From a virus: a stretch of DNA of 64,000 nt. The notes beneath the pieces were generated by a model. That model searched no databases and was not told the DNA's origin. It was given only the letters and a program-made list of their open reading frames with translations. The stretch covers positions 1 to 64,000 of IMG/VR virus record IMGVR_UViG_3300010354_000002, one strand, 5' to 3'. This document shows positions 22,937 to 60,868 of this stretch, piece after piece. Every line of letters starts with the position of its first letter. Position 1 is the stretch's first letter. The translations under genes were made by a program, and so were the position numbers.

Positions 22937-22977
22937 GGCGGTCGGTCGGCGGGTGACCGTTGGCCGACCGCCTTTTT
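22937..22977 (+). terminator. Rho-independent terminator after MCP
   Basis: GGCGGTCGGTCGGCGG-GTGA-CCGTTGGCCGACCGCC-TTTTT. Confidence 0.85.
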
Positions 22978-27700: not shown

Positions 27701-27760
27701 AATCTCCTGTATCGGTTCTTCCGATGAGCCTAGTTTACCGTTCGTGTTACGGGTTGTCAA
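27701..27760 (-). promoter_or_regulatory. Early promoter/hairpin/RBS cassette
   Basis: TTGACA-17-TAAACT; CATCGGAAGAACCGATACAGGAGA. Confidence 0.85.
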
Positions 27761-32621: not shown

Positions 32622-33048
32622 TCCACTCGCCCGGGACCCATCCATCTTTGGCATAATGCTGGCCCTCAAGCACCCTGACATGCGTCAATCCAGACAGGAA
32701 TCCGCCGTATCCCAGAATGCGCACACGGGTTCGGGATGGAGTCTCAAACATGCCGCCCTGAAGCCAGATGTTGAGTGCGCCTTCCTTGTCCTTGCGCCCC
32801 ATGGCTCCAAGAAAGTCCGAGGCAATCTTCTCAGATGCAAACACTGTGACTGGAGCGGACTCAATTCCATTATGGAGGTTGACGACGTCACCGATCTTTG
32901 CCGACACATTCGTCACGGTCTGTGTATTTGTGCTGCCACTGCTTGGCAGGAATACGCTTGCCACACAACCACCGAACAGGACTACCGGGATGGCGCATAC
33001 GATCAAGCAGCCTATCCCGGTAGCACCCAAACAATTCACGTCAGACAT
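32608..33048 (-). CDS. Membrane-anchored protein
   Basis: Hydrophobic N-terminal helix; GAAAGGAG RBS; SH3-like GWV at the C-terminus. Confidence 0.7.
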   Translation of the reverse strand: MSDVNCLGATGIGCLIVCAIPVVLFGGCVASVFLPSSGSTNTQTVTNVSAKIGDVVNLHNGIESAPVTVFASEKIASDFLGAMGRKDKEGALNIWLQGGMFETPSRTRVRILGYGGFLSGLTHVRVLEGQHYAKDGWVPGEWIKKP

Positions 33049-33112
33049 TGATTTACTCCTTTCAAAAGAACAGGCCCGGTTGCCCGAGCCTTTGACATCA
33101 ACAATCTTGGCA

Positions 33113-34596: not shown

Positions 34597-34977
34597 CTAT
34601 CCCGAAACCACTTCCCTGTCAACGCATGATGCGCACATTTCAAGCCATGCATCAGGATGGATTCGTAATTGGACGATGCGATGCTTCTGCCTGATCAATT
34701 CGACTAGCCCCGCAGCCTCGCACGCAACGGCTATGTCGTGCGCCCGTGGTGCACCGCAATGATCTGCCAAAACGGACGGCACATACCTCGCCCACACTGT
34801 TTCGGTTGACACCAATGCGGTTGCAGTTGAAGTGCCACGGTATGCCCGTGTCTGATGTTGCGCCAGCCATGTCAGCAGACGGATTGATGCGTACATCCGA
34901 TTTCTGGCGTATGGGATTTTCGGCACCTGCTTGATTCGATCCAGCACCATCTCCGGCAATCGCCTTGGAATCCACAT
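34597..34977 (-). CDS. Hypothetical protein (winged-helix-like)
   Basis: Fills the gap; CEAAGLVEL motif. A competing frame (34652-34975) exists. Confidence 0.5.
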   Translation of the reverse strand: MWIPRRLPEMVLDRIKQVPKIPYARNRMYASIRLLTWLAQHQTRAYRGTSTATALVSTETVWARYVPSVLADHCGAPRAHDIAVACEAAGLVELIRQKHRIVQLRIHPDAWLEMCASCVDREVVSG

Positions 34978-35401: not shown

Positions 35402-36014
35402 TACCCCGTATCAGATGCGCTAGTTCATCCAGTGCGCTGATGCTCAACGTGTTTGCAACACGTTCTGGTGCCGGTCTGCCAGACGACATGGCTGCCTCTA
35501 CGTCTTCACCAGCATCCATTGCGGATATGACCGCTTCGTCCTGCCTGATTGCCTCTGCCAGTTTGATCAGTGTTGCGGATCGGTCATGGTCGCCCATATA
35601 CACAGCCTCGGCGACTGCATCAAATGCCTTGGACAGGGCCTTGCCCCGCTGCACCGCGCCCACGCTGGTTTCCTCCAACAACATGCGTCTGGCGACGACG
35701 TGGGACGGCAGCCCAGAGCCGGATTCTGCAAGGCGGCGCATGCCATACCAATAAGTCGCAGGTATGTATGCATCGTCGTCCAGAACTCCCTCGTCCCGCA
35801 AGATTATTTCAGCGTCCACCTTGGTCAGGCCGTTGGCAGCCATGCCGACCAATGCCGGTCGAACTTCCTCCGGGGGCGGTGTCATGCCACGCAACCACGA
35901 TTCCACGTCGTCGTGCAATTTGCGCTTCTGTGCATCGGACAGGTAACGGAAATAGTTCGGTCGCATTGTTGTCAGCCCATGCATATCATAAAACGCACGG
36001 TCATACGATGACAT
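35376..36014 (-). CDS. Hypothetical protein
   Basis: 212-aa ORF within the operon. Confidence 0.65.
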   Translation of the reverse strand: MSSYDRAFYDMHGLTTMRPNYFRYLSDAQKRKLHDDVESWLRGMTPPPEEVRPALVGMAANGLTKVDAEIILRDEGVLDDDAYIPATYWYGMRRLAESGSGLPSHVVARRMLLEETSVGAVQRGKALSKAFDAVAEAVYMGDHDRSATLIKLAEAIRQDEAVISAMDAGEDVEAAMSSGRPAPERVANTLSISALDELAHLIRGIDENATTD

Positions 36015-36036
36015 CGTTTAGCAAAACACGGTTTGT

Positions 36037-36696
36037 CTAACTATGTTTGGAGAACACCAGTTGCATGATTGTTGGGAAACATTCATCCAGAATTGCCTTG
36101 ACCGCCTGAGCGACCTCCCTGTGCTCCTTCTGTGTAGTCTCATCCAGACGCAATTTTAGGTAATGAATCCAAGAGCGCACGTTGCCAGTCATATACATGC
36201 GCGTCGGCGTACACAGTGGCAGTACCGACCTTGCCGACTCAGGCGCAACTCCCATGACGACCATGTCAACATAGGCCTCATAGGTTCGATGCATCAAACA
36301 CTCAGCACGTTCAACCGATGCCTTTTGCCCCGGTGTAAGTTCCTGCGAAATACTGGACTGACGATTCGTTGTTCCAGCAATACGCATTTCCGGCAAGGCA
36401 GGAGGCTTTATCTTGGAGGAGTATCGTTGCGAAAACTCCTGAAAGCAAAAACTCCGATGCCGCAGTATTTGCGCGGCCACGTCCCGTGTCGTGTTGATTT
36501 CAATGCATGCTGTGGCGTGTTCAAAAGGCGACCAATGGTTATGTTCTACAAGATATTTGAACAGGCGAGAGTATTCAGGGTTTTCCTGATTGGACGAACT
36601 AACCCGCGCAATGTAGGCGATTAGTGCCTCCGCATTAGGCGTCGCCCACACCAAAGACGCAGTGCGCCCGTCTGAATTACCCCAGTTTCCGTTCAT
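36037..36696 (-). CDS. thyX: Flavin-dependent thymidylate synthase
   Basis: HWSPFE; ThyX motif RHRSFCFQEFSQRY; ARSVLP; TQKEHR. Confidence 0.95.
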   Translation of the reverse strand: MNGNWGNSDGRTASLVWATPNAEALIAYIARVSSSNQENPEYSRLFKYLVEHNHWSPFEHATACIEINTTRDVAAQILRHRSFCFQEFSQRYSSKIKPPALPEMRIAGTTNRQSSISQELTPGQKASVERAECLMHRTYEAYVDMVVMGVAPESARSVLPLCTPTRMYMTGNVRSWIHYLKLRLDETTQKEHREVAQAVKAILDECFPTIMQLVFSKHS

Positions 36697-36920
36697 TCCA
36701 CAACCTGCCATTCGTCTTCCATCAGTTCACCGAGGATGTAAGGTCCGCCATGAAGCACTGTGCGTTCCTCTGTGACCCCATCTATTTCGGAATGCATGTA
36801 GAACGCCCAGCACTGGTAGTATTTTTCGGGCTTTGCCAACAGGTATTGGCCATCGGGCCAGTATTCCCGCCGTATCCGTTTTCCCTCCCGAAGGGCTTGC
36901 AGGGCTTCCGGTCCAGTCAT
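36693..36920 (-). CDS. DUF2829/Tad2-like protein, copy 1
   Basis: MTGPEALQALREGKRIRREYW…EDEWQVVE. Confidence 0.7.
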   Translation of the reverse strand: MTGPEALQALREGKRIRREYWPDGQYLLAKPEKYYQCWAFYMHSEIDGVTEERTVLHGGPYILGELMEDEWQVVE

Positions 36921-37174
36921 TTGTCAACCTCCACTACTTCCCAGTCGTCGTACATCAACAATTCAGAGAGGAATATTCCTTTGGCATATGAAGTTATGAC
37001 TACACCTTTGTCATCAATCCAATCTATTGAGTTTGGATTCCATTCATCCGTGCCATACAGGATGCATCCTTCTCCATGGAAGCAAACAGCATTGGCATGA
37101 ACTCCTTCACCCCAATGTTGCCTCTTGATTTTCTTGCCGTTGCGCAGGGCTTGCAATGCTTCCGGCCCAGTCAT
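36917..37174 (-). CDS. DUF2829/Tad2-like protein, copy 2
   Basis: MTGPEALQALRNGKKIKRQHW…DDWEVVE. Confidence 0.7.
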   Translation of the reverse strand: MTGPEALQALRNGKKIKRQHWGEGVHANAVCFHGEGCILYGTDEWNPNSIDWIDDKGVVITSYAKGIFLSELLMYDDWEVVEVDK

Positions 37175-37425
37175 TCCGCCAACTCCACTACTTCCCAGTC
37201 GTCGTGCAGGAACGAGGCCGCAATCCAACCGGGGTAGTTATGTGCGTCGTCCATGAAGATCGCCGATCCGTGAATTACGATATCAAAATCGCAAGGGCCT
37301 CCGTCCAAATCTTCGGCCCCTTCCTCGTCCCAAGTAAACGCTTTGAAATGCGTTCCCGGCGTCCACATGCACCGTCGAACGGCTTTGCCTCGCTTAAGGG
37401 CTTCTATCGCTTCTGATCCGGTCAT
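37171..37425 (-). CDS. DUF2829/Tad2-like protein, copy 3
   Basis: MTGSEAIEALKRGKAVRRCMW…DDWEVVE. Confidence 0.7.
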   Translation of the reverse strand: MTGSEAIEALKRGKAVRRCMWTPGTHFKAFTWDEEGAEDLDGGPCDFDIVIHGSAIFMDDAHNYPGWIAASFLHDDWEVVELAE

Positions 37426-37427
37426 CC

Positions 37428-37667
37428 TCACGGATTCTCCTCCCAGACGACTGTATCCGGGTCTACCAACTCCCATTTCTCCAGAATCGTCTCGCAATGC
37501 GGCTCCCAGAGACACCCTCCCCTCATGCCCGGTCTGCTGACCTGTGGCATCTCAACGATATATCCATGTTCGTTGATGCCGTACGCCCATCCAGCCCCGC
37601 GCAGCGACTTGGGTCGAAACCACTCTCCCGAGTAGACAGCCCGCTTGATGCATTTCCGCATTGTCAT
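37428..37667 (-). CDS. Hypothetical protein, possible divergent DUF2829-like copy
   Basis: C-terminal WEP…ILEKWELV. Confidence 0.55.
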   Translation of the reverse strand: MTMRKCIKRAVYSGEWFRPKSLRGAGWAYGINEHGYIVEMPQVSRPGMRGGCLWEPHCETILEKWELVDPDTVVWEENP

Positions 37668-38131
37668 TTAGTACCCGTGCTCCCAAACCCGCCATTGCCA
37701 CGTTCCGTGGCATCAAGTTCCTCAACAAGCGTCAATTCAGCAATCAGAATAGGCGTCAGCACCATTTGGGCAATTCGGTCGCCTCGCACCATTATGAACG
37801 GCTTGTCACTTGTGTTGTGCATGATTACCTTGATCTCGCCCCGGTAGTCGGAATCAATTGTTCCCGGCGAGTTCAGGACATGTACGCCATGTCTGTATGC
37901 CAACCCACTCCGAGATCTAATCTGAATTTCGGTCTGCCTTGGCAAACCAGCAAGCCTGATTCCTGTCGGAATTGCCTTCGTTTCGTGTGGCTCCAAAACA
38001 CAAGAATCCGATGCCCTGATGTCCATTCCTGAACTACCGGGTGTCTCGTAGGATGGCAACCCGTAGAGGTTGACCATCTCCTTGTCCATCTGGATGAGTA
38101 TGTTCATCATCCCTGATTTGCGGTTGCTCAT
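37664..38131 (-). CDS. dut: Trimeric dUTPase
   Basis: SGMDI, RSRSG, GTIDSDYRGEI, RIAQ and RGNGGFGSTG motifs. Confidence 0.95.
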   Translation of the reverse strand: MSNRKSGMMNILIQMDKEMVNLYGLPSYETPGSSGMDIRASDSCVLEPHETKAIPTGIRLAGLPRQTEIQIRSRSGLAYRHGVHVLNSPGTIDSDYRGEIKVIMHNTSDKPFIMVRGDRIAQMVLTPILIAELTLVEELDATERGNGGFGSTGTK

Positions 38132-38784
38132 TACTCCCCTTTCGTCTGTAGATGGCGTACGGCCTTTTTCAGACGTGACTCGTATGCATCCTGATCGCTT
38201 CGGTCGTACTTGGGCTTGTTGGCGGCTTCCCTCTTTTCCCGTTCCCATTTATCATTTTCGGCTTTGATGATCCTGCACGCCTTGCGAGCCTCGTAATCAG
38301 ACAGTTTCAACAGTGGCCGAAGCAGAATCTGATCAAACGGTCCGCCATGGTCCTTGCTTGGGAACTCTTCAAGCCATGCTGGTAGTTCCTCCGACCCTGC
38401 GGCCTGCCCAAGCATAGGCTGCGAAGGCGACTCAAGTTGCCTGTTGGCCGGTGGGGCCGGGGCGATCACATGGCGGCGAACATCTGCTTCGTTTCCCGCC
38501 ATTACCTGCATCCTGTACACCTCGCGAACCTTGTTCTCAAGGGCGTCCCATTTGGGTCGAAACTGGCTGTTTCGGATGAAAAACATTACCTGCCAACCCT
38601 CGGCATTCCATCCTGTGCCGTGCGAGTCCCTAAACCGAATCCCCCGGTCGCTGATCCGCTTGCACAGTTCGATCAATAGCCGCCATGCCTCTTCGTCCAC
38701 ATCGCACCATTCAGGGCCGGGAGCATGTTCCATTAGTTTGCGGATCTCCGTGCAGAATGCACGGATGTCATTCATTTCCCGCAT
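38131..38784 (-). CDS. Hypothetical replication-associated protein
   Basis: 217 aa; lies downstream of the initiator. Confidence 0.6.
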   Translation of the reverse strand: MREMNDIRAFCTEIRKLMEHAPGPEWCDVDEEAWRLLIELCKRISDRGIRFRDSHGTGWNAEGWQVMFFIRNSQFRPKWDALENKVREVYRMQVMAGNEADVRRHVIAPAPPANRQLESPSQPMLGQAAGSEELPAWLEEFPSKDHGGPFDQILLRPLLKLSDYEARKACRIIKAENDKWEREKREAANKPKYDRSDQDAYESRLKKAVRHLQTKGE

Positions 38785-39035
38785 ATACGCTTTGACTTCT
38801 TGAACTCATCAACATCCAAAGCGGAAATGCAGTTGTTCGCCAACACGCCTAAATCGGCGCGAGTCAGTCGCATCTGTTGCGTTTGGCGTGCAAACGATTG
38901 CGCTTGCGGATTATGTGGCTCTTCCGCAACCCAGTGTTTGCCTAGTGCCTCCAAATCACGAATTGCCACACATATGCTTGTGGTTATCTGGGAAACCTCC
39001 AACAACCTACCGCGTACGATATCTCTGTTCTTCAT
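38772..39035 (-). CDS. Hypothetical protein
   Basis: AGGAGG RBS; TTGACA-17-TAGTGT promoter at 39064-39092. Confidence 0.65.
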   Translation of the reverse strand: MKNRDIVRGRLLEVSQITTSICVAIRDLEALGKHWVAEEPHNPQAQSFARQTQQMRLTRADLGVLANNCISALDVDEFKKSKRICGK

Positions 39036-39088
39036 ATCAACCTCCTGCGCTATGGCGCAAACAACACTATCGCAATACCACTATGTTG

Positions 39089-40057
39089 TCAAGCGTCTGG
39101 GCTGAACGAAAGCGCATGGATTACGCCGTCCTGTGCGTTGTCCACCCAGTCAATCCCGTCCAACAATCGTAGCCGTATGTCCCATTCAACGTGCGAGATG
39201 ATCTTTCGCTGATCTTCGTCCGAAAGGACAAGGAAACTCGCCTGATCGCCTCGCAATGCGTTCATCCGGGCACGCTTGAGGCCGTTCGCTTCAGCCGTCG
39301 CAATCTTCTGTGCCTTGGTTGGTTCGGCTTGCTTGGCTTGCTCCTCAAGGAGCGCATCAAAATGCCCAACGACGCTGCGGAACGTAACCATCGCTGGACT
39401 AGACCACCGCTGAAGGGCATTGCGGGTGGCAGCGGCAACTTCGGCTGGGGTCCGTCTCGCCTCAATCAGATAGTCCAGTTCGGCACGGAACTTGTCCAGT
39501 ACGGACAGAGGGAACCTCTCGCCAACAATGTGGCGTGCTGTCGAGAATGCACGGTACAGGGCTTTTCGATCCGGGGTGTACTCGTGCTCGTCCTGATCGT
39601 TATCGGGCCTAGGTAAGCCTTCTAGTATAGTTTTACGTTGTAGATTACTATCTATTTCATTTCGTCTATTTATGTGCGCCAAATTTGACACTGGGGGGGC
39701 GTCAAATTTGCTCCCCCCCGTGTCGTTTTTGACGCTGGGGGCGAAGTCTGCTGGAGTGCACACGACGACCTCGTTTGTCCTTTGTGCGCCGTCCTCCGAA
39801 AAGCGATTTGAACGTTGGATCAGGCCAAGGGATTCCAGTTCGTCGTTGGCCCTGTCAAGGGTCCGGAGCGAGCAACCGACCATCTCCGACAGCCGCTTGC
39901 GACTCGGAAATACACAGTTCCCAGACCATGCATGCGACTTATAGGCAAGCCAAAGCAGACGTGCCGCCATTGAAATTTCAGCGTCGAACATGACACTGTT
40001 GTGTGCTACCGTCCACGGCTCTTGCGTGGACAAACGTACATTGGTAACGTCTTGCAT
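39089..40057 (-). CDS. Replication initiator with N-terminal winged HTH
   Basis: FPSRKRLSEMVGCSLRTLDRANDELESLGLI; iteron-like repeats inside the gene. Confidence 0.8.
   Translation of the reverse strand: MQDVTNVRLSTQEPWTVAHNSVMFDAEISMAARLLWLAYKSHAWSGNCVFPSRKRLSEMVGCSLRTLDRANDELESLGLIQRSNRFSEDGAQRTNEVVVCTPADFAPSVKNDTGGSKFDAPPVSNLAHINRRNEIDSNLQRKTILEGLPRPDNDQDEHEYTPDRKALYRAFSTARHIVGERFPLSVLDKFRAELDYLIEARRTPAEVAAATRNALQRWSSPAMVTFRSVVGHFDALLEEQAKQAEPTKAQKIATAEANGLKRARMNALRGDQASFLVLSDEDQRKIISHVEWDIRLRLLDGIDWVDNAQDGVIHALSFSPDA
39620..39745. other. Putative replication origin (iterons plus AT-rich tract)
   Basis: TTTGACACTGGGGG, GTCAAATTTG and TTTGACGCTGGGGG repeats beside an AT-rich stretch within the initiator gene. 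Confidence 0.55.
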
Positions 40058-40070
40058 TCTGTCCTGCCAT

Positions 40071-40150
40071 AAAAATCAATCCCCTCCCAGCGGAAAGGAT
40101 AAAACACTAGGAGGGGAGAACCACGGCGCGGAAAGGAGGAAACACGCCGT
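40071..40150 (-). ncRNA. Twin-hairpin structured RNA with anti-SD loops and a U tract
   Basis: ACGGCG[TGTTTCCTCCTTTCCG]CGCCGT, then TCCCCTCCTAG[TGTTTTATCCTTTCCG]CTGGGAGGGGA-TTGATTTTT. Confidence 0.6.
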
Positions 40151-40185
40151 AGTATGTAGGCCGCCAACGGTGGCCGATATTGTTA

Positions 40186-40458
40186 TCAGCGTTTCTTGGC
40201 TGCTGGACTGGCAACCGCAACAGGCTCAGGGCGGGGATCAAGGTACACCACGTGTGCGTTCGTCCAGTCGCCGTCAGGCATCCTCCACGGCGTAGTGTCT
40301 GCCGTCAGAGCCTTCCAGCAGTCCTCCGAGGCACGAAACTCATCGGACAAAAAAGCGCAGACCGAGAGCGATTGACTCTGCAGCGCTTTATAGGACTCGC
40401 AAAGTTCCTCCACCGACTTCACGTCATTCAGATGGACGTTGAAACGTCGTTCAATCAT
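40186..40458 (-). CDS. Hypothetical protein
   Basis: GGAGG RBS. Confidence 0.65.
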   Translation of the reverse strand: MIERRFNVHLNDVKSVEELCESYKALQSQSLSVCAFLSDEFRASEDCWKALTADTTPWRMPDGDWTNAHVVYLDPRPEPVAVASPAAKKR

Positions 40459-40582
40459 GCCAATCCTCCATATCGGGATGATCCCGTTGTTCCCACCAGC
40501 CAGCCACCCTGATCACACATGCGATCAGGATGGCCAGCGCAACGATTGGTACGGCGATAACTGCCATGGCTAAGTTATACAT
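40451..40582 (-). CDS. Small membrane protein (43 aa)
   Basis: Hand translation MYNLAMAVIAVPIVALAILIACVIRVAGWW…; overlaps both neighbours. Confidence 0.5.
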   Translation of the reverse strand: MYNLAMAVIAVPIVALAILIACVIRVAGWWEQRDHPDMEDWHD

Positions 40583-41144
40583 CCTTATCCAGAGTTTTGA
40601 TTTTGGCTATGGTATAGCCGTCTTCGATCACGAAGCCGCTTGGGCAACGCCCCTCGGCAATCCATTCCTTTGTCGGCAATTGGCTGATCAGAACCTTCTT
40701 GGTAACCTTTACAGCCTCGGGCACGTTTTGCTCTGCCCAAGCAATCGCATCTCCCTCGGCGTCGTTGATGGCAACGCTCTGCCCTCGCGTGACAAACGAG
40801 ATCGTGCCGAACGGGGTTTTGTGCGTCTTGGATGCGTATGAGCCATCGGCCTTTCGGGGCAACAGGCTATCGGCGACGTGCTTGGCCTGTTGCTCGTAAC
40901 GCTCAAGCCACCAATCACGTTTCCGCTCGCGTTCAACAATGATCTTCTCCGCATTTGCGATAATCGTTTGCAACTCGGCTTTTGCCGCCGCCACATCCGA
41001 CTCATACCGCAACAGGCGACGCATGAAAACAAGCAAATCATCTTCGGTCTGAACGCCGGTGGCGTCCAATGCGCCGTCTACTGGCCCAGCGTACTCGCCG
41101 GTCTCCTCGTCCCACAAATCCTCTCCAATCCGTACGATTCCCAT
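40575..41144 (-). CDS. Gam-like / Gp157-like host-nuclease inhibitor
   Basis: Coiled coil followed by KTHKTPFGTISF; adjacent to the SSAP gene. Confidence 0.65.
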   Translation of the reverse strand: MGIVRIGEDLWDEETGEYAGPVDGALDATGVQTEDDLLVFMRRLLRYESDVAAAKAELQTIIANAEKIIVERERKRDWWLERYEQQAKHVADSLLPRKADGSYASKTHKTPFGTISFVTRGQSVAINDAEGDAIAWAEQNVPEAVKVTKKVLISQLPTKEWIAEGRCPSGFVIEDGYTIAKIKTLDKDV

Positions 41145-41145
41145 C

Positions 41146-41712
41146 TTATTTCCCTTCCTTCGTCAGTTTTACAATCAGATCCTGAAGTGTCTGTGCATTC
41201 ACCGGGCGGTCTTTCAGCATCATCTTGACCACCTTGTTCTGCTCCGCATGATCATCCGCTTTTGCAAGGCCCTGCTCCACAATCAGCGTGCGAACTGCCT
41301 GAGCCAACCGTTGAACATCTTCCTTCTTGTCCGGCTCGGCAGCCCGTGTCCGTTGCACCGGCGCATCTGCCAATCGGTCTCGCTCGTCCAGTTCGTCTGC
41401 CATGAACTGTGTCCCGTATCCCGCAATCCCTAGTGCTCGTCCAATGGCACCGGTCTCGCATTTCTCCAAAAAGTCGGGGAAGTCCTTGCGCGATTCCTGC
41501 TTGGTGCCAGTGGCTAAAAGGTTGCCGTCGGCGTCGTAGACCGATGCGCGGCAGACGGCAAATCCGCCCTCTATGTCAATCTGAAGAAAATCAGATTCAA
41601 TCCGTCCCCCGGGGTGTGCATTTCGGAACCACACCAACCTGAACGCTACGGGCAGATAATCCTTGCCCTTGAGTTTCATAACTCCAACCTTGACGCTATC
41701 TGGTATCTGCAT
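41146..41712 (-). CDS. Single-strand annealing protein (Rad52/Sak-like)
   Basis: KGKDYLPVAFRL…EKCETGAIGRAL…GYG. Confidence 0.7.
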   Translation of the reverse strand: MQIPDSVKVGVMKLKGKDYLPVAFRLVWFRNAHPGGRIESDFLQIDIEGGFAVCRASVYDADGNLLATGTKQESRKDFPDFLEKCETGAIGRALGIAGYGTQFMADELDERDRLADAPVQRTRAAEPDKKEDVQRLAQAVRTLIVEQGLAKADDHAEQNKVVKMMLKDRPVNAQTLQDLIVKLTKEGK

Positions 41713-41787
41713 TCTCTGTTCTCCTGTGCGAAGACCCCGTAGCCGGGGCCACGAGGTCTTTGTACCATGCGTTGACAAAACTGTCAA
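41713..41787 (-). promoter_or_regulatory. Promoter/hairpin/RBS cassette
   Basis: TTGACA-17-TACAAA; GGCCCCGGCTACGGGGTC; CAGGAGAAC. Confidence 0.7.
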
Positions 41788-41797
41788 ATCGCAAACA

Positions 41798-42145
41798 CTA
41801 CCCCTTGTTACGCTTGATATTGGTCGGGATGGTCTTGCATTGCAGCGTCTTGATCGGCGCAATGCCGACAATCTGCAATTCGACCAAAAACGCCTCTTGA
41901 TCTTCACGCAGGTCGTCAAACGCATGGCGTATGCAACTGCCGATCACGCTAGATCGAATTTCGTCCACGGTATGCGAAGCGAGCATCTGCCGTGCCGATC
42001 CCTTGCCGTCCTTGTTCGTGCTCTCGATAAACGACTCAGCGAACTCATGCACCTCGCTGTCAGCAAGATTCGACATGGTAATAACCATGCCCAGCCATTT
42101 CAGCCCAATCGGTATCTGAAACCGAGTTTCTGGTATCTCTTCCAA
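41798..42145 (-). CDS. Hypothetical protein (start uncertain)
   Basis: ORF within the minus-strand operon. Confidence 0.55.
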   Translation of the reverse strand: MEEIPETRFQIPIGLKWLGMVITMSNLADSEVHEFAESFIESTNKDGKGSARQMLASHTVDEIRSSVIGSCIRHAFDDLREDQEAFLVELQIVGIAPIKTLQCKTIPTNIKRNKG

Positions 42146-42291
42146 CGTTCCATCCTTTCTTCGTATCCCGGTGCTTCATGTCTGCCGTGCGGAGACCGGT
42201 CATCCATTGCACGGGCGAGTCTTGCGTTGTCGGACGCCTGCTGTAGCACCCACAACTCGGCATAGCCTAGTGCGCAATCCTGTGTTTTCAT
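42100..42291 (-). CDS. Hypothetical protein
   Basis: GAGG RBS; ATGA coupling. Confidence 0.6.
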   Translation of the reverse strand: MKTQDCALGYAELWVLQQASDNARLARAMDDRSPHGRHEAPGYEERMERWKRYQKLGFRYRLG

Positions 42292-42533
42292 AATTTCCTC
42301 TTGCCGGATGGTAATCCTTCGCGGCGTGCCAATTCGCTAAAACAATAAGCGACCTCGTCAAGGTAGTAGTCTGTGTTGATCCCCTCTGGATTCGCCTTGG
42401 CCGCCTCAGCGGCGTCTCGGGCAATCCACTTGATCCGATCCGACGACAACCGTCGCAGAAAGCGTTGGTACATAGCGTGGTCCATTACTTTCCGCATTGA
42501 TATCGCCTCCATTCGTTCACATCGAACGTCCAT
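42288..42533 (-). CDS. Hypothetical protein (start probably downstream of 42533)
   Basis: YYLDEVAYC…EL motif seen in phage early proteins. Confidence 0.65.
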   Translation of the reverse strand: MDVRCERMEAISMRKVMDHAMYQRFLRRLSSDRIKWIARDAAEAAKANPEGINTDYYLDEVAYCFSELARREGLPSGKRKL

Positions 42534-42895
42534 TGCTCTGCCTGATTCTGCAAAAATATGCGCGTTTCAGACTCGTTGCCGAATCGTGCCACATTGTTGT
42601 TGCCGTCCCACACGGTTTCGTACGCTGCGCTGATCCGTGTGATTTCGTCTGCATGGTTGCGCAGGAAATCAACAGCAGACGCATGCGCTCGCAGGTTCGG
42701 CCTGTCAACCAGCAAGACATGGCCATGGAACTCACGGAACGTCGAAGTGCCAGCAGGGCTGTACCCTACGATGATGCTTTTGGTGTCCCAGCAAAATGCG
42801 ATGGTGGGCACCTCTTGGCGCACTTTGTTTTTTGCGTCGCCACTGTAGGTCTCAAACTCCACCTTGAGATCGCCGATCAAAATCTGTTTAGCCAA
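42485..42895 (-). CDS. Hypothetical protein (TTG start)
   Basis: AAGGAG RBS after a promoter cassette; WDGNN motif. Confidence 0.65.
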   Translation of the reverse strand: MAKQILIGDLKVEFETYSGDAKNKVRQEVPTIAFCWDTKSIIVGYSPAGTSTFREFHGHVLLVDRPNLRAHASAVDFLRNHADEITRISAAYETVWDGNNNVARFGNESETRIFLQNQAEQWTFDVNEWRRYQCGK

Positions 42896-42963
42896 TGTCT
42901 TTCTCCTTGCGGGGTATTCTGCCCCGACACCAAGATGATACCGGGGCTGTACGGGGTTGTCAA
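42896..42963 (-). promoter_or_regulatory. Early promoter/hairpin/RBS cassette
   Basis: TTGACA-17-TATCAT; CGGGGCAGAATACCCCG; AAGGAG. Confidence 0.85.
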
Positions 42964-42966
42964 TGG

Positions 42967-43191
42967 TTACGGCAAATTTGTCCCAGTGTATTCGGCACCG
43001 GCAATCCAGCCATCCAGCCATAGGGATGCTTCCCTGATTCCCAACGCCTTGCCTACATGGTTGCCGCTGTGGTAATCAGACGGGCCGAGGTGGAAGCGGT
43101 AACGAATGACGCCGTCACCGGGCCTCCACTCGGTGACATACAGCCCGGCTCGTTGCGCTCGGGCAAGCAATTCAGTCTTGGTAACTCGCAT
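42967..43191 (-). CDS. Hypothetical protein
   Basis: AAGGAG RBS preceded by a hairpin (43211-43239). Confidence 0.7.
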   Translation of the reverse strand: MRVTKTELLARAQRAGLYVTEWRPGDGVIRYRFHLGPSDYHSGNHVGKALGIREASLWLDGWIAGAEYTGTNLP

Positions 43192-43246
43192 GATTTGTTC
43201 TCCTTGATTTGCCGGGAGATGGCGAACCACCTCCCGGCTACAGTGA

Positions 43247-43606
43247 CTATCGGTAGTTCGTAGGGTTGTGAACTTGGTGGGACAACCGCAACGCTTCATG
43301 GTACGCAAGGGCGGCATTGAACCCAATCTCTGCCTCTTTGGCCAAACGGCGCAAGGCAGCCTTCTTCTTGGCGTCAGTAGCGGCGGTGTTGTGTGCCACA
43401 ACCTCGTCGTCGCAAGCCTTCAGGTACGCTTTTACAAACTGAAACACGGATTCACTGAGAATGCTATCTGCCGCAAAGTTGGCCATTTGAAGGTGGAAAT
43501 TGGCCGACTCAGGACTCTTGACAGCGTGTTGCGCAACGCCCTTCAGATTGCGCACAACCTTGAACAACGGCTCCACAGACGAGCCAAGCGAGTGCTTGTT
43601 ATCCAT
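43247..43606 (-). CDS. Hypothetical protein
   Basis: AAGGAG RBS; first gene after the leftward promoter. Confidence 0.7.
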   Translation of the reverse strand: MDNKHSLGSSVEPLFKVVRNLKGVAQHAVKSPESANFHLQMANFAADSILSESVFQFVKAYLKACDDEVVAHNTAATDAKKKAALRRLAKEAEIGFNAALAYHEALRLSHQVHNPTNYR

Positions 43607-43766
43607 CGTAATTCTCCTTTGCAAGGGCGTTCTGCCCTGACACGACCATGTTACTACCAGTTCCCGGCGTTGTCAAGCCCAAAGAAAAAAAAGATTGGGC
43701 CTTGACAACATGGGCAGGCGGTTGTATCATTCAGCCGTCCCCGCACTACGGGGCAAGGAGAACCCA
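43607..43766. promoter_or_regulatory. Back-to-back divergent early promoter cassettes
   Basis: Minus: TTGACA(43671-76)-17-TAACAT with AGGGCAGAACGCCCT. Plus: TTGACA(43702-07)-17-TATCAT with CCCCGCACTACGGGG and AAGGAG. An A tract lies between them. Confidence 0.85.
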
Positions 43767-44249
43767 ATGCATAGCCTACATCTGACACCCGAGCAAGCCG
43801 AGCGAATCGGCGAGGTCTCGAACGGTACGTTGCGCACCCGAGATCTGTTGCAACGTTTTACAATTGCGTTGACTGCTGTTGTCAACTTGCTGACGACTCC
43901 CGAGACCGAAGGCTTCGTTGAAATCGTCGTCAATCGCATCCAGTTGGAAAACATCAAAAAGTTCATTGACAGCACCGATCCGTCCGATGCATATTTTGAA
44001 AACAACCAAGAGCATCAGGACGAGGCGTCGCAATGGATTGACCTGCTCTACGACTACCTCAACGGATTTGCGCCCGAGGGCTGGTATTTTGGATCGCATG
44101 AGGGCGACGGCGCGTGCTTCGGCTACTGGCAGTTAAGCGAGGACAGTGAAGCCGACCATGAACTGGTACGAGCAGATCCTAGGCAATGTCATTCCGAATA
44201 CGAACCCGTATGGGCTGATCCACGCGAAGGTTATCCCGAAGGGCTGTAG
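43767..44249 (+). CDS. Conserved phage hypothetical protein
   Basis: GTLRTRDL…APEGWYFGSHEGDGACFGYW motif. Confidence 0.75.
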   Translation: MHSLHLTPEQAERIGEVSNGTLRTRDLLQRFTIALTAVVNLLTTPETEGFVEIVVNRIQLENIKKFIDSTDPSDAYFENNQEHQDEASQWIDLLYDYLNGFAPEGWYFGSHEGDGACFGYWQLSEDSEADHELVRADPRQCHSEYEPVWADPREGYPEGL

Positions 44250-44257
44250 GAAAAACC

Positions 44258-44635
44258 ATGAAGACAATCATCCCGCCTAAATCTTCAGTTGGAACCATCG
44301 TCATTGATGGCGTCGCCACGGACTTCCACGTGGCGACGACCATGGGCGACTATGACACCGATCAGGGCTACAACCATTACATTGCCTGCCATTGCCGTGA
44401 GGAGGGCTACCAACCCGTAGTCAATGCGCAGCCACGATCAACCTTCATCGAAGCCGAGGCCGATGCGCTAAACACGATTGTGCGCTACGGACAAATGATT
44501 GAAATGCAGTCGGAACTTGCAGTTCACCATGTCAGGTTCGTGGTGCTTCAAAACGAAATCGCCAACATCAAGATCGTTCAAGTGCGACTTGAAACAACAG
44601 AAAGCGAAGAGGAAAAAAACAATGACCTTCGGTAA
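44258..44635 (+). CDS. Hypothetical protein
   Basis: AGGA RBS; in operon. Confidence 0.65.
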   Translation: MKTIIPPKSSVGTIVIDGVATDFHVATTMGDYDTDQGYNHYIACHCREEGYQPVVNAQPRSTFIEAEADALNTIVRYGQMIEMQSELAVHHVRFVVLQNEIANIKIVQVRLETTESEEEKNNDLR

Positions 44636-44954
44636 TTTTGAACTGAATAGTGACCAGTATGGTTTGATTCCGTCACACACATTGCATGCTCTGGAGCAGT
44701 TCCTGAGCGATGGGCAACCGGTCGGCGGGTTTCTGACGGCGGTGCTGGACAACGACCTCAAAAATGCAATCGGGCGGGCCGACCGGGAAAACCTGTCGGC
44801 CTTGGAGCAGATCGTAAAGTTGATCTACAACTACTTCCCCGCTTTCTTCTTGCGGGAGAACTCCGTGGATGACTACCTCAATCAGGAGGCACGTTACACA
44901 CTAGGCGCAAATGGTGCCATCATCCGCGCAAACATCAAGGAGGTTGCGGTATGA
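44622..44954 (+). CDS. Conserved phage hypothetical protein
   Basis: GGFLTAVLDNDL…RADRENL motif. Confidence 0.75.
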   Translation: MTFGNFELNSDQYGLIPSHTLHALEQFLSDGQPVGGFLTAVLDNDLKNAIGRADRENLSALEQIVKLIYNYFPAFFLRENSVDDYLNQEARYTLGANGAIIRANIKEVAV

Positions 44955-45328
44955 CCCTCAAAATCCCACTAGACGTGCAACACAAATACGGTTTGGCATT
45001 GTGCCAATCCATTGTGCAGTCGTACAAACGACGACCAGCCGAGGATAGGCTAGACGACAGTCCAGTCGCCCACGTCGTAGCCAAACTGTCAAACAACGAG
45101 ATTGGCATACTAGTAGACGTGACTCCGCAATGGTGGGACGATCTTGTACTAGTTGACGTGGAGGTCACGACACACGCCGCCTACGGTTTGCGCACCATGC
45201 TAATTGAAATGATCAATGCACGGCTTCGTCAGGCCGATCTATGGGTGGACACCGACGAAGGAGTAGTACTACCGGAAGATCTGTACGAGAGGCTTTTCCC
45301 GGGCACAGAGGTTGCAAGCGATGGCTAA
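44951..45328 (+). CDS. Hypothetical protein
   Basis: AGGAGG RBS; ATGA overlap. Confidence 0.7.
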   Translation: MTLKIPLDVQHKYGLALCQSIVQSYKRRPAEDRLDDSPVAHVVAKLSNNEIGILVDVTPQWWDDLVLVDVEVTTHAAYGLRTMLIEMINARLRQADLWVDTDEGVVLPEDLYERLFPGTEVASDG

Positions 45329-45566
45329 TATTGAAGAGATTTCGGAAACATTTCGGACACTGACCAAGCAGGCGTTCGACTGCCTTGCCAAGGACACTGA
45401 TGCATACGGCGATCTACGTCATCGTTGGGAAGACGATTGGGTTCCCAATGTCCTGTATGCGCAACAAGAGACAAACGCAACTCCGGCTTCTGCCGGTCAT
45501 GCAATCTTTTTCGCCGCCTATTGCGTGGAGGCAGCACTAAGGCAATTTGAGGAGTTGGTGCGATGA
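45321..45566 (+). CDS. Hypothetical protein
   Basis: GAGG RBS. Confidence 0.65.
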   Translation: MANIEEISETFRTLTKQAFDCLAKDTDAYGDLRHRWEDDWVPNVLYAQQETNATPASAGHAIFFAAYCVEAALRQFEELVR

Positions 45567-45829
45567 GATGTTATGCGGTTTTCTACGGTGGTGGCTCGTA
45601 CAGCCACCCTTATGCCGATGAAGCGGAAGAGTTTCAGTCGCTCGCTGCCGTGAAGCGCAAGTACGCCGATGCTTTACGTGGACGTGATCGCCGGTATCCT
45701 TGTGTGGATGAAAACGCCCGTGTAACGGTATGGTTTTACGATCCCACAGCGGACGATGTGCGCGATCCGTATCCCGATGCAATGATTCGCGTGGGCAAGC
45801 GTGATGGGTTGCGCGTTGACAGGGTGTAA
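45563..45829 (+). CDS. Hypothetical protein
   Basis: ATGA overlap; GGGSY…DPYPD motif. Confidence 0.7.
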   Translation: MRCYAVFYGGGSYSHPYADEAEEFQSLAAVKRKYADALRGRDRRYPCVDENARVTVWFYDPTADDVRDPYPDAMIRVGKRDGLRVDRV

Positions 45830-45878
45830 GATCAGGCCGAGTTTGTTGTGGCGTATACTTGAAAGGTGAGGTGAACTG

Positions 45879-46304
45879 ATGAGCGCATTTTCCAATTACA
45901 TGGAAGAGAAGGTTGTCAAGTGGTCTTTTTCGGCTAGCAACTCAATGCCTACCCAGCCGACCAGCGTGTGGATTTCATTGCATACGGCCGACCCGGGCGA
46001 GACCGGTGCAAGCAACGAGGTAAGTGGTGGCAATTATGCGAGACGTGACGTCTCGCTAACTGGTGGATGGACTGTGGATCAGGATGGAAATGGAGACTGG
46101 CGTGCTCGGAACGCAAACACTATTCAATTTCCTTCCAGCGGAACTGTCACATGGACGGCGACAGTTAGTCATTTTGCAATCTGGGATGCAAACAGCGGAA
46201 CGCCTAATTGTCTGTACAAAGGCGTGTTGCAGGCGTCCAAGTCAGTCTCAAGCGGGGATATCTTTCAGTTCCTTGCGAACAACCTGACAATTACGCTTCA
46301 GTAG
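45879..46304 (+). CDS. Small virion structural (tail-fibre-associated) protein
   Basis: SNYME…SLHTADPGETG…EVSGGNYAR…HFAIWDA motif. Confidence 0.8.
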   Translation: MSAFSNYMEEKVVKWSFSASNSMPTQPTSVWISLHTADPGETGASNEVSGGNYARRDVSLTGGWTVDQDGNGDWRARNANTIQFPSSGTVTWTATVSHFAIWDANSGTPNCLYKGVLQASKSVSSGDIFQFLANNLTITLQ

Positions 46305-57865: not shown

Positions 57866-57959
57866 TCTAGAATCCTTTCAGGTTACCGGGGCGATCAGCA
57901 ACTAAGTTCTGCGAATCGCCCCGTGGAGAGATACTACTACGCCTGTTCGGCGTTGTCAA
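57866..57959 (-). promoter_or_regulatory. Early promoter with extended leader hairpin
   Basis: TTGACA-17-TAGTAT; CGGGGCGAT…GCAGAAC…ATCGCCCCG. Confidence 0.75.
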
Positions 57960-60313: not shown

Positions 60314-60868
60314 ATGGCACAGTATTCACTAGACCTACCCGTCGTCACCATCCCCGAATCGGGGTCGAAGCACGTCCTGCCCACAGAGAAGGAGTTGCGT
60401 CTGGAAAGGGACGCAGCGGAAGGCAATATCAAGGATCTGGATCGTCGAATTGAGACCAACGAAGCAAAACTGGCTACCGCAGAGGGCGATGAGGTCAAGG
60501 CAACGAAAGAGGAAGCCGAACTGTTGCAACGTCAGCATAGGCTGGCTACGCAGATCAAGGACAAACTAGACGTTGCAATTGCCAATCGCGAGGCAATCAT
60601 TGCTACGGCGGAAGTAGTAACAGTGTCGGTTCGCGTGCCAACCTACGACGAACTGTCAAAGGCCGAGAGCCTGTATCGAACGTTGGAGGGTGATCGGTTC
60701 GTGACCGACCGTGGGAAGGTAATCCAGCATCTTATGAGGGCGTGTGCGCCTGATGTTGCTTCGCTGCACCCTGTCGTGGGCCGCCATGTTGAACGATGGC
60801 TCATGCGTGCAGTGTGGCCGGAGGAGGAACTGCTCCCTTTTTGGTACATCGCGCTCAACAGGTCTTAA
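60314..60868 (+). CDS. Tail assembly chaperone (G)
   Basis: Upstream of the tape measure; slippery C CCT TTT near the 3' end. Confidence 0.7.
   Translation: MAQYSLDLPVVTIPESGSKHVLPTEKELRLERDAAEGNIKDLDRRIETNEAKLATAEGDEVKATKEEAELLQRQHRLATQIKDKLDVAIANREAIIATAEVVTVSVRVPTYDELSKAESLYRTLEGDRFVTDRGKVIQHLMRACAPDVASLHPVVGRHVERWLMRAVWPEEELLPFWYIALNRS

Follow-up and report, generated by a model that had tools for sequence, protein, structure and literature searches.

Directly ahead of the replication initiator gene of an uncultured river phage, two RNA hairpins built on unrelated stems display almost the same loop. What such a pair is for, and on which strand it acts, is the question raised by this locus. 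We analysed a 64,000-nt stretch of DNA (positions 1 to 64,000 of IMG/VR virus record IMGVR_UViG_3300010354_000002, hereafter the window), which represents the first 64 kb of a phage genome of 83,161 nt. The genes around the element are encoded on the minus strand, and on this sense strand the element spans 40153-40071, as two adjoining hairpins followed by a tail, before the initiator ATG at 40057. Judged from its sequence, it is a cis-acting structure of the sense-strand RNA, situated in the intercistronic leader of the initiator gene. As for its function, we tentatively favour an operon-internal attenuator of the intrinsic-terminator type that would gate early transcription into the replication module, with the two loops as docking sites for a factor.

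Two adjacent strong hairpins share a loop motif

A first-pass annotation of this DNA had described two adjacent hairpins with unrelated stems and near-identical 16-nt loops, ending about 13 nt before the initiator ATG, and this description holds: 14 of the 16 positions are identical, the 16 nt corresponding to a 12-nt loop plus two closing pairs on each side, and the tail ends at 40071. Both loops finish in YCCUUUC, and the 3′ arm of hairpin 2, GGGAGGGGA, resembles a Shine-Dalgarno (SD) sequence, the 5′ arm being its complement. The folding energy was −16.7 kcal/mol for hairpin 1 (z = −4.9) and −23.0 kcal/mol for hairpin 2 (z = −5.6), and in neither case did any of 200 shuffled sequences fold equally well or better. 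Both hairpins and the tail lie in the 128-nt gap that separates a 90-aa open reading frame (ORF; 40458-40186) from the initiator gene, and a small hairpin that starts 11 nt past the stop codon of this ORF precedes them (Table 1).

The 8-mer GGAAAGGA, complementary to the loop core, occurs in the 83,161-nt genome only twice on either strand, both times here. The count of CGGAAAGGA is mildly unusual, two matches anywhere in the window being reached in 6 of 100 shuffles. We judged the element to be non-random not from these counts but because both copies of the motif, 38 nt apart, sit in the loops of two adjacent strong hairpins. A scan of the window for every CCTTTC, CTCCTT or CCTCC site with flanking stems of at least 6 bp returned 45 rows corresponding to 41 distinct hairpins. 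Among them, those of the element have stems of 13 and 11 bp, and the only other stem of at least 10 bp (12 bp with four G·U pairs, at +26374) lies within a 334-aa ORF. Searched against Rfam, the window had no hit at the gathering scores, and 39900-40400 had none on either strand even with E values up to 10. A literature search within a limited library found no paper describing such an element.

Table 1. Coordinates of the twin-hairpin element and of the features around it
Feature	Position in the window	Strand	Description
Hairpin 1	40120..40153	minus	11-bp stem, two G·U pairs, 12-nt loop
Hairpin 1, parts	5′ arm 40153-40143; loop 40142-40131; 3′ arm 40130-40120	minus	loop UUUCCUCCUUUC
Linker UC	40118..40119	minus	2 nt, inside block GGUUCUCCCC (40122-40113)
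Hairpin 2	40080..40117	minus	13-bp stem, two G·U pairs, 12-nt loop
Hairpin 2, parts	5′ arm 40117-40105; loop 40104-40093; 3′ arm 40092-40080	minus	loop UUUUAUCCUUUC
U-rich tail UUGAUUUUU	40071..40079	minus	7 U in 9; U-tract broken by GA
AUG right after the U-tract	40068..40070	minus	opens an ORF of ~30 codons, out of frame with the initiator
Small hairpin GGCCACCG-UUG-GCGGCC	40159..40175	minus	6 pairs and one A·C mismatch, 3-nt loop; conserved
Replication initiator gene	39089..40057	minus	322 aa, HTH_36; PHROG replication-initiation families
Origin-like block in initiator gene	39677..39736 (flanks 39650-39780)	minus	~330 nt downstream of the element
90-aa ORF upstream of the element	40186..40458	minus	no family; stop codon 33 nt before hairpin 1
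Nearest upstream promoter	42935..42963	minus	sigma-70-type, TTGACA-17-TATCAT, 11/12
Second upstream promoter	43676-43648	minus	sigma-70-type

The fold is conserved in a second lineage and in river strains

The initiator family is tiny, with 6 clusters among 5.8 billion proteins; the initiators of four further relatives (P0002, P0003, P0005 and P0006) are 40-62% identical. Searches with the initiator or its alignment found no related locus in viral or genome contig sets and one in metagenome contigs. This sole relative with available DNA, the 2,369-nt contig L001, encodes an initiator that is 58% identical and is syntenic with the window, the upstream ORF being 28% and the downstream gene 60% identical. 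Blastn of 39000-41200 against phage records gave no match, tblastn of the initiator gave three weak ones (23-32% identity), and the 259-aa protein encoded nearby had no related locus among viral contigs. Comparison was therefore made between two lineages plus one strain variant.

The L001 leader on its own folds into three matching hairpins, the small one being present at the same place (GCCACCGUCGGUGGC). The aligned leaders have a mean column identity of 77%, and the two-sequence consensus fold contains 23 pairs, of which three changed on both sides, three on one side and none was broken. Hairpin 1 differs by three doubly compensated and two one-sided pair changes. In hairpin 2 there is a 2-bp length change together with further compensated pairs, the L001 version having an 11-bp stem and a 10-nt loop, UCUCCCUUUC. 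Loops in both lineages measure 10-15 nt and all four end in the same motif, loop 1 differing at one of 12 aligned positions. The linker block GGUUCUCCCC is identical at 10 of 10 positions, the block GGGGAUUGAUUUU, formed by the stem base and the tail, is identical as well, and the distance from the tail to the initiator ATG is 13 nt in the window and 18 nt in L001. A 53-aa frame that spans the element in the window was rejected as coding, the frame being lost in L001.

DNA runs from rivers and other aquatic habitats contained contigs of near-identical strains. The strain present in contigs of three of four runs carries ~38 differences and a 1-nt deletion in 40198-40617, a stretch that covers the 90-aa upstream ORF, two differences in 40055-40197 and none listed in 39400-40128. 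The boundary of this mosaic, near 40198, shows that the leader travels with the initiator gene, and the comparison with L001, where the upstream ORF is much less similar than the initiator, agrees with this. The only stem change, at 40129, turns a U·G pair of hairpin 1 into U-A; a second variant replaces C by U at the last base of loop 1.

Could all this be an ordinary pair of terminator or stability hairpins whose loops have no special role, with loops, linker and tail that are identical simply by inheritance and have not yet diverged? Only two lineages were compared, their leaders retain the column identity given above, and the C-to-U change in the strain indicates that loop 1 is not invariant. 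Nevertheless, within 80 nt at least six stem pairs have changed and the loop cores have not, and within one phage the two loops share their motif despite unrelated stems, which common descent of the lineages cannot explain; moreover, the other terminators of this phage use 4-nt loops. On balance this explanation has a small chance of being correct.

Other sequences yielded nothing comparable. Two scans with DNA patterns for the element gave 0 matches, another gave six, all judged to be chance, and a scan of genome contigs gave 120 loci, nearly all an unrelated repeat with CCTTTC in its stem and the rest chance. The unrelated repeat, GGGGGAAACCTTTCTGARGAAAGGTTCTCCCCC..CCCCTTTCCAAAGACTTTT, was recorded at loci L008-L127 (for instance L009 4186-4221, and two copies in L061); it is multicopy in Ruminococcus genomes and also occurs in Desulfovibrio-type, Planctomycetota and other assemblies.

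The conserved fold belongs to the sense strand

The first-pass annotation had favoured the minus strand from a G-U pair and the trailing tract, and this choice was strengthened here: the window hairpins contain four G·U pairs, two in each, and all seven wobble pairs of the two lineages (four in the window, three in L001) lie on the sense strand. In the window, the antisense versions of hairpins 1 and 2 reach only −10.4 and −16.7 kcal/mol; in L001 the sense and antisense energies are −19.0/−12.2 and −22.9/−24.4 kcal/mol. The sense strand is thus ~6 kcal/mol more stable in three of the four hairpins, the plus strand turning G·U pairs into A·C mismatches, and a 141-nt stretch folds with −54.4 kcal/mol (z = −3.9) on the minus strand versus −44.4 kcal/mol (z = −2.0) on the plus strand. 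The wobble pairs and the energies therefore identify the sense-strand fold as the conserved one.

This result bears on the idea that the locus encodes a plus-strand antisense RNA, starting near 40080 and ending at the small hairpin, that would act as a countertranscript, in the manner of the repABC countertranscript RNA (ctRNA), the pIP501 RNAIII or lambda OOP, or as a CsrA sponge through GGA-containing loops. Read in that direction, the small hairpin followed by GAUAUUGUUA was flagged as terminator-like, the small hairpin is conserved without an obvious sense-strand role, and the complement of the U-tract provides a −10-like NAAAAT in both lineages. In addition, initiator genes of several plasmid families are regularly preceded by countertranscripts (PMC4981023, PMC3155836). 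Nonetheless, near 39900-40100 the plus strand has no promoter-like site at or above 9/12, other promoter types being possible, and inspection by eye revealed neither a −35 nor an extended −10 that could be used, the promoters of this phage being near consensus. The position of the wobble pairs and the weaker plus-strand folds also speak against it, as does the lack of any match in Rfam, which includes ctRNA, OOP, CsrB and RsmZ-type families. The GGA motifs put forward in the first-pass annotation as a plus-strand CsrA sponge do exist, but the sponge itself lost ground on the same three counts. We consider a plus-strand RNA highly unlikely.

A signal acting at the level of DNA can be weighed with the same data. 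Two GCGGAAAGGANNAAACAC repeats 38 bp apart might be protein sites such as iterons or operators, or the hairpins might form in single-stranded DNA (ssDNA) and prime near the origin. A direct repeat of 18 nt is indeed present at 40090 and 40128, and the origin-like block lies ~330 nt away. However, the stems are kept by compensatory changes while their sequence shifts, which indicates a folded single strand rather than duplex sites; the G·U pairs would be weak as G·T in DNA; and the repeat is found nowhere else in the genome, not even in the origin-like block. This is a most improbable explanation.

The initiator gene is probably reached through the element

The initiator was assigned by profile searches against Pfam (PF13730, E = 1.1e-07) and PHROGs (phrog_270, E = 1.5e-13), and dUTPase and ThyX are encoded downstream of it. 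A genome-wide scan revealed that the consensus promoter family of this phage is TTGACAAC-17-TAnnnT, with minus-strand sites at 43676, 42963, 34622 and further ones beyond. Within 36000-46000, the minus-strand promoter-like sites at or above 9/12 are those at 42963 and 43676 only; at this threshold none was found between 42963 and 34622, and a relaxed scan of 40100-40700 gave no minus-strand site even at 8/12. Since the sole promoters upstream are those at 42963 and 43676 and the next one downstream is at 34622, the initiator gene is reachable only via the element. Consequently, the initiator gene, its internal origin-like block and the nucleotide-metabolism genes beyond would be transcribed through it.

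The origin-like block shows 92-95% nucleotide identity to L001, versus 55-80% elsewhere in the gene. It comprises inverted and direct repeats (GCGTCAAAAAC, GCAAATTTGACGC and GTGTCAAATTTGGCGC) that surround runs of G7 and C7, and an A+T-rich stretch comes next. As RNA the block folds strongly.

Consensus promoters stand back to back in 42935-43995, probably the early control region: those at 43676 and 42963 belong to the minus strand and those at 43702 and 43966 to the plus strand. Downstream of each come a short G+C hairpin and a strong ribosome-binding site (RBS). A minus-strand cassette made of the promoter TTGACAAC-17-TAnnnT, a small hairpin CAUCGGAAGAACCGAU and the RBS ACAGGAGAAC is repeated at 27760, 28644, 29116, 30496 and 33765. 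Among the early products, the 259-aa protein (41146-41925, minus strand) is 33-35% identical over half its length to proteins of Thermus phages P23-45 and P74-26 that adjoin an annotated ssDNA-binding protein, and Lactobacillus delbrueckii phages also match. ThyX is closest to Synechococcus phages (~50-54% identity), the portal is ~25% identical to SPO1-like phages and no tRNA genes were found; the label of actinophage was not adopted.

Hairpin 2 and its tail have features of an intrinsic terminator

Hairpin 2 together with UUGAUUUUU presents a G+C-rich stem followed by a U-rich tract (tail score 3.88), and terminator-like sites of the minus strand were returned by a consensus scan at 40100-40079. 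It is the sole strong terminator-like unit in the 8-kb stretch between 42963 and 34622. The same consensus scan lists an alternative hairpin of 9 bp with a 4-nt loop, which pairs loop 2 with the 3′ arm and is not the minimum free energy (MFE) structure. When folding of the nascent transcript was followed, hairpin 1 formed immediately and hairpin 2 upon completion of its 3′ arm, and neither nascent-transcript nor constrained folds revealed an alternative or antiterminator structure competing with hairpin 2 in either lineage. Because a competing fold is absent, the default state is expected to be the formed terminator. The ordinary terminators of this phage are compact, with 4-nt loops (for example those at 22973, 61325, 57376 and 56567), and by this comparison the large, sequence-conserved loops of the element look displayed for recognition.

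From these observations we infer termination, regulated read-through and the involvement of a factor as follows. Transcripts would start at the early promoters 42963 and 43676, ~2.9-3.6 kb upstream of the element, cross six or so early genes and then run into the two hairpins and the U-rich tail. Formed by default, hairpin 2 would act together with the tail as an intrinsic terminator and limit the transcription that enters the initiator gene, the origin inside it and the nucleotide-metabolism genes beyond. The YCCUUUC loops would dock a single factor that sets the extent of read-through; this could be an RNA-binding protein that is dimeric or has two binding sites, or else an RNA whose loops are rich in purines. 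The first-pass annotation had mentioned an attenuator controlling replication as one option; sense strand, place within the operon, hairpin plus U tail, lack of a nearer promoter and co-movement with the initiator make it the best fit, while the termination step itself is deduced.

Several points weigh against this attenuator. Intrinsic terminators usually have loops of 3-8 nt, and 10-15 nt is unusual for them (hairpin 2 has a loop of 12 nt in the window and of 10 nt in L001); moreover, GA breaks up the U-tract. Apart from the conserved loops, all of the observations could be accounted for by a simple partial terminator that is not regulated. The comparative basis of two lineages and one strain variant is thin, the leader is moderately diverged, and part of the loop and linker identity may reflect shared ancestry instead of selection. 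A phage-specific type of promoter, invisible to sigma-70 scans, could feed the initiator gene. Among 26 distinct ORFs of the window (8 compared with Pfam and PHROGs, 10 more with Pfam and 8 further with PHROGs), no RNA-binding or antiterminator family was detected, so that no factor was found. Finally, a search of sequencing runs found no RNA run with the sequence, a result that is no evidence on expression either way.

Loop pairing and translation provide less probable explanations

The loops are also complementary to RBSs, and the first-pass annotation had proposed an RBS-sequestering small RNA (sRNA) and quoted matches at the genes starting at 33048 and 57865. These matches are real: perfect 8-nt complementarities exist between CUCCUUUC and GAAAGGAG at 33063 and between AUCCUUUC and GAAAGGAU at 57879. 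Termination at hairpin 2 and processing upstream of the small hairpin could free a stable trans-acting RNA of ~100-120 nt, whose anti-SD loops would pair with purine-rich RBSs in mRNAs of the phage or the host and so reduce translation of these mRNAs, in the manner of the C-rich loops of 6C or RsaE-type RNAs. In keeping with this, the loops complement extended SD sites, most of the changes seen from one loop copy or lineage to another are C/U swaps, which preserve pairing to G, and 6C binds G-rich RBSs through C-rich hairpin loops without a chaperone (PMC6486639). Nevertheless, any anti-SD-like sequence matches RBSs, the two quoted matches are ordinary extended SD sites, and by our estimate about one chance 8-nt match is expected among ~100 genes. 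The duplex energies for 20 gene starts of the operon stayed within the range of random windows, none exceeding the 1st percentile for loop 1 and three (41144, 40057 and 37515) doing so for loop 2. There is, besides, no promoter-like site before the element, which is linked to the initiator module and not to any target, and neither 6C nor any other Rfam family matches it. What remains of the sRNA is a conceivable but rather unlikely device.

A related possibility is that the loops deliberately copy the 16S rRNA 3′ tail, CCUCCUUUC. In that case the early RNA, once terminated or processed, would serve as a decoy ribosome tail that pairs with SD sites or titrates a factor recognising the 16S tail, allowing the phage to re-tune translation as replication starts. 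We take the likeness to CCUCCUUUC from the general bacterial consensus and regard the decoy as quite unlikely.

Pairing could instead act in cis. Hairpin 2 hides the SD-like sequence GGGAGGGG before the AUG at 40070, and either the translation of the short frame opened there or the hairpins as barriers to exonucleases might set the output of the initiator from its own weak RBS. In both lineages this AUG occupies the equivalent site, right behind the U-tract and 10-11 nt past the G-run. The frame that it opens in L001 (354-374) has 6 codons and ends in a UGA overlapping the initiator AUG, a classic coupling arrangement. The RBSs of the initiators are weak in both cases (AGGA-4 nt-AUG in the window, GAGAA in L001), and strong intercistronic hairpins commonly stabilise the flanking mRNA. 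However, the L001 architecture is not conserved in the window, where the frame is out of register and runs ~80 nt past the initiator AUG, so that coupling by termination and reinitiation is impossible there. Furthermore, the initiator RBS is unpaired in the MFE structure with or without the hairpins, and hairpin 1 and the shared loop motif would have no explanation. We therefore see little prospect for such a translational or stability device.

The remaining pairing partners were set aside. The G-run of the origin-like block is the best partner of the loops within 500 nt in both lineages, but it is locked in its own hairpin and suits any C/U loop. A hairpin with a GGAAAGG loop at 60398-60417 (plus strand) lies inside a coding frame and was judged to be chance. 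A GGUUCUC pairing of the linker complements the RBS of the L001 initiator (GAGAACC) but not that of the window and is unconserved, and triple-helix and loop-to-downstream pseudoknot arrangements, checked by eye, are not conserved either.

The element resembles known leaders of replication genes in part

A second RNA controls the formation of an intrinsic terminator in the repC leader of repABC plasmids, whose origin is within repC (PMC3155836). The repB-repC leader (inc-alpha) and that of the phage share several traits: both are operon-internal leaders directly before an initiator and capable of forming a terminator, and in both the origin, or origin-like block, is in the initiator gene (PMC3155836). 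The phage initiator, moreover, has a weak, sub-threshold Pfam match to the RepC N-terminal domain (E = 0.0044). The repABC terminator forms only upon binding of the cis-encoded antisense RNA, an alternative large stem-loop being possible (PMC3155836); in the phage, by contrast, neither an antisense promoter nor an alternative fold was detected, Rfam gave no ctRNA match, and two loops share a motif.

Plasmids of the pIP501 type offer a second parallel, and their target reportedly uses two loops at once for recognition. Attenuation takes place in the repR leader of pIP501, that is, by premature termination in the leader of the initiator mRNA, as proposed here (PMC4981023). Its effector is a 136-nt countertranscript made from a mapped promoter, in a plasmid of Gram-positive bacteria (PMC4981023). 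A terminator-like hairpin directly upstream of the initiator start, as an antisense-controlled attenuator would have, is found in both the window and L001. Both the repABC and the pIP501 leaders, however, use a cis-encoded antisense RNA, and no promoter for one was found here on the plus strand at or above 9/12.

Among phages, lambda nutR/tR1 and HK022 put are early-transcript hairpins that stand before a terminator separating the early from the replication genes, and they are read by a factor or by RNA polymerase itself for read-through. BoxB has a 5-bp stem and a 5-nt purine loop; put sites are present in two copies per genome and do not require loop identity. Unlike them, the element is present in a single copy, has long pyrimidine loops and includes the terminator itself as its second hairpin. 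Its pyrimidine-rich loops of 10-15 nt do not correspond to a lambda-type nut site; no family was assigned to the early ORFs, although an N-like protein without a family is possible. Similar to lambda OOP, a small structured RNA locus lies immediately before a phage initiator gene; OOP, however, is made antisense to cII from a promoter of its own, pO (PMC12197685), whereas the element has its conserved fold on the sense strand and showed no antisense promoter.

The 6C RNA (RF01066) of Actinobacteria has C-rich hairpin loops that pair with G-rich RBSs, and dnaB is among its targets (PMC6486639). Both RNAs have hairpins with pyrimidine-rich loops able to pair with G-rich RBSs. 6C is a free-standing, promoter-driven host sRNA with C-runs (PMC6486639), while the phage element is promoterless, lies in an operon and has C/U loops. 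It gave no match to the RF01066 covariance model.

Significance of the element

How the timing and dose of phage initiators are set has been worked out in detail only in a small number of model phages and plasmids. The element described here is an uncatalogued RNA with a clear anatomy, placed at the control point of an initiator in a phage lineage with almost no relatives. Since the promoters of the phage have a sigma-70 consensus, termination can be tested in vitro without knowing the host. If the loops are docking sites, they point to a new antitermination or attenuation factor; if they are mimics of the 16S tail, they would represent a new way for phages to steer translation.

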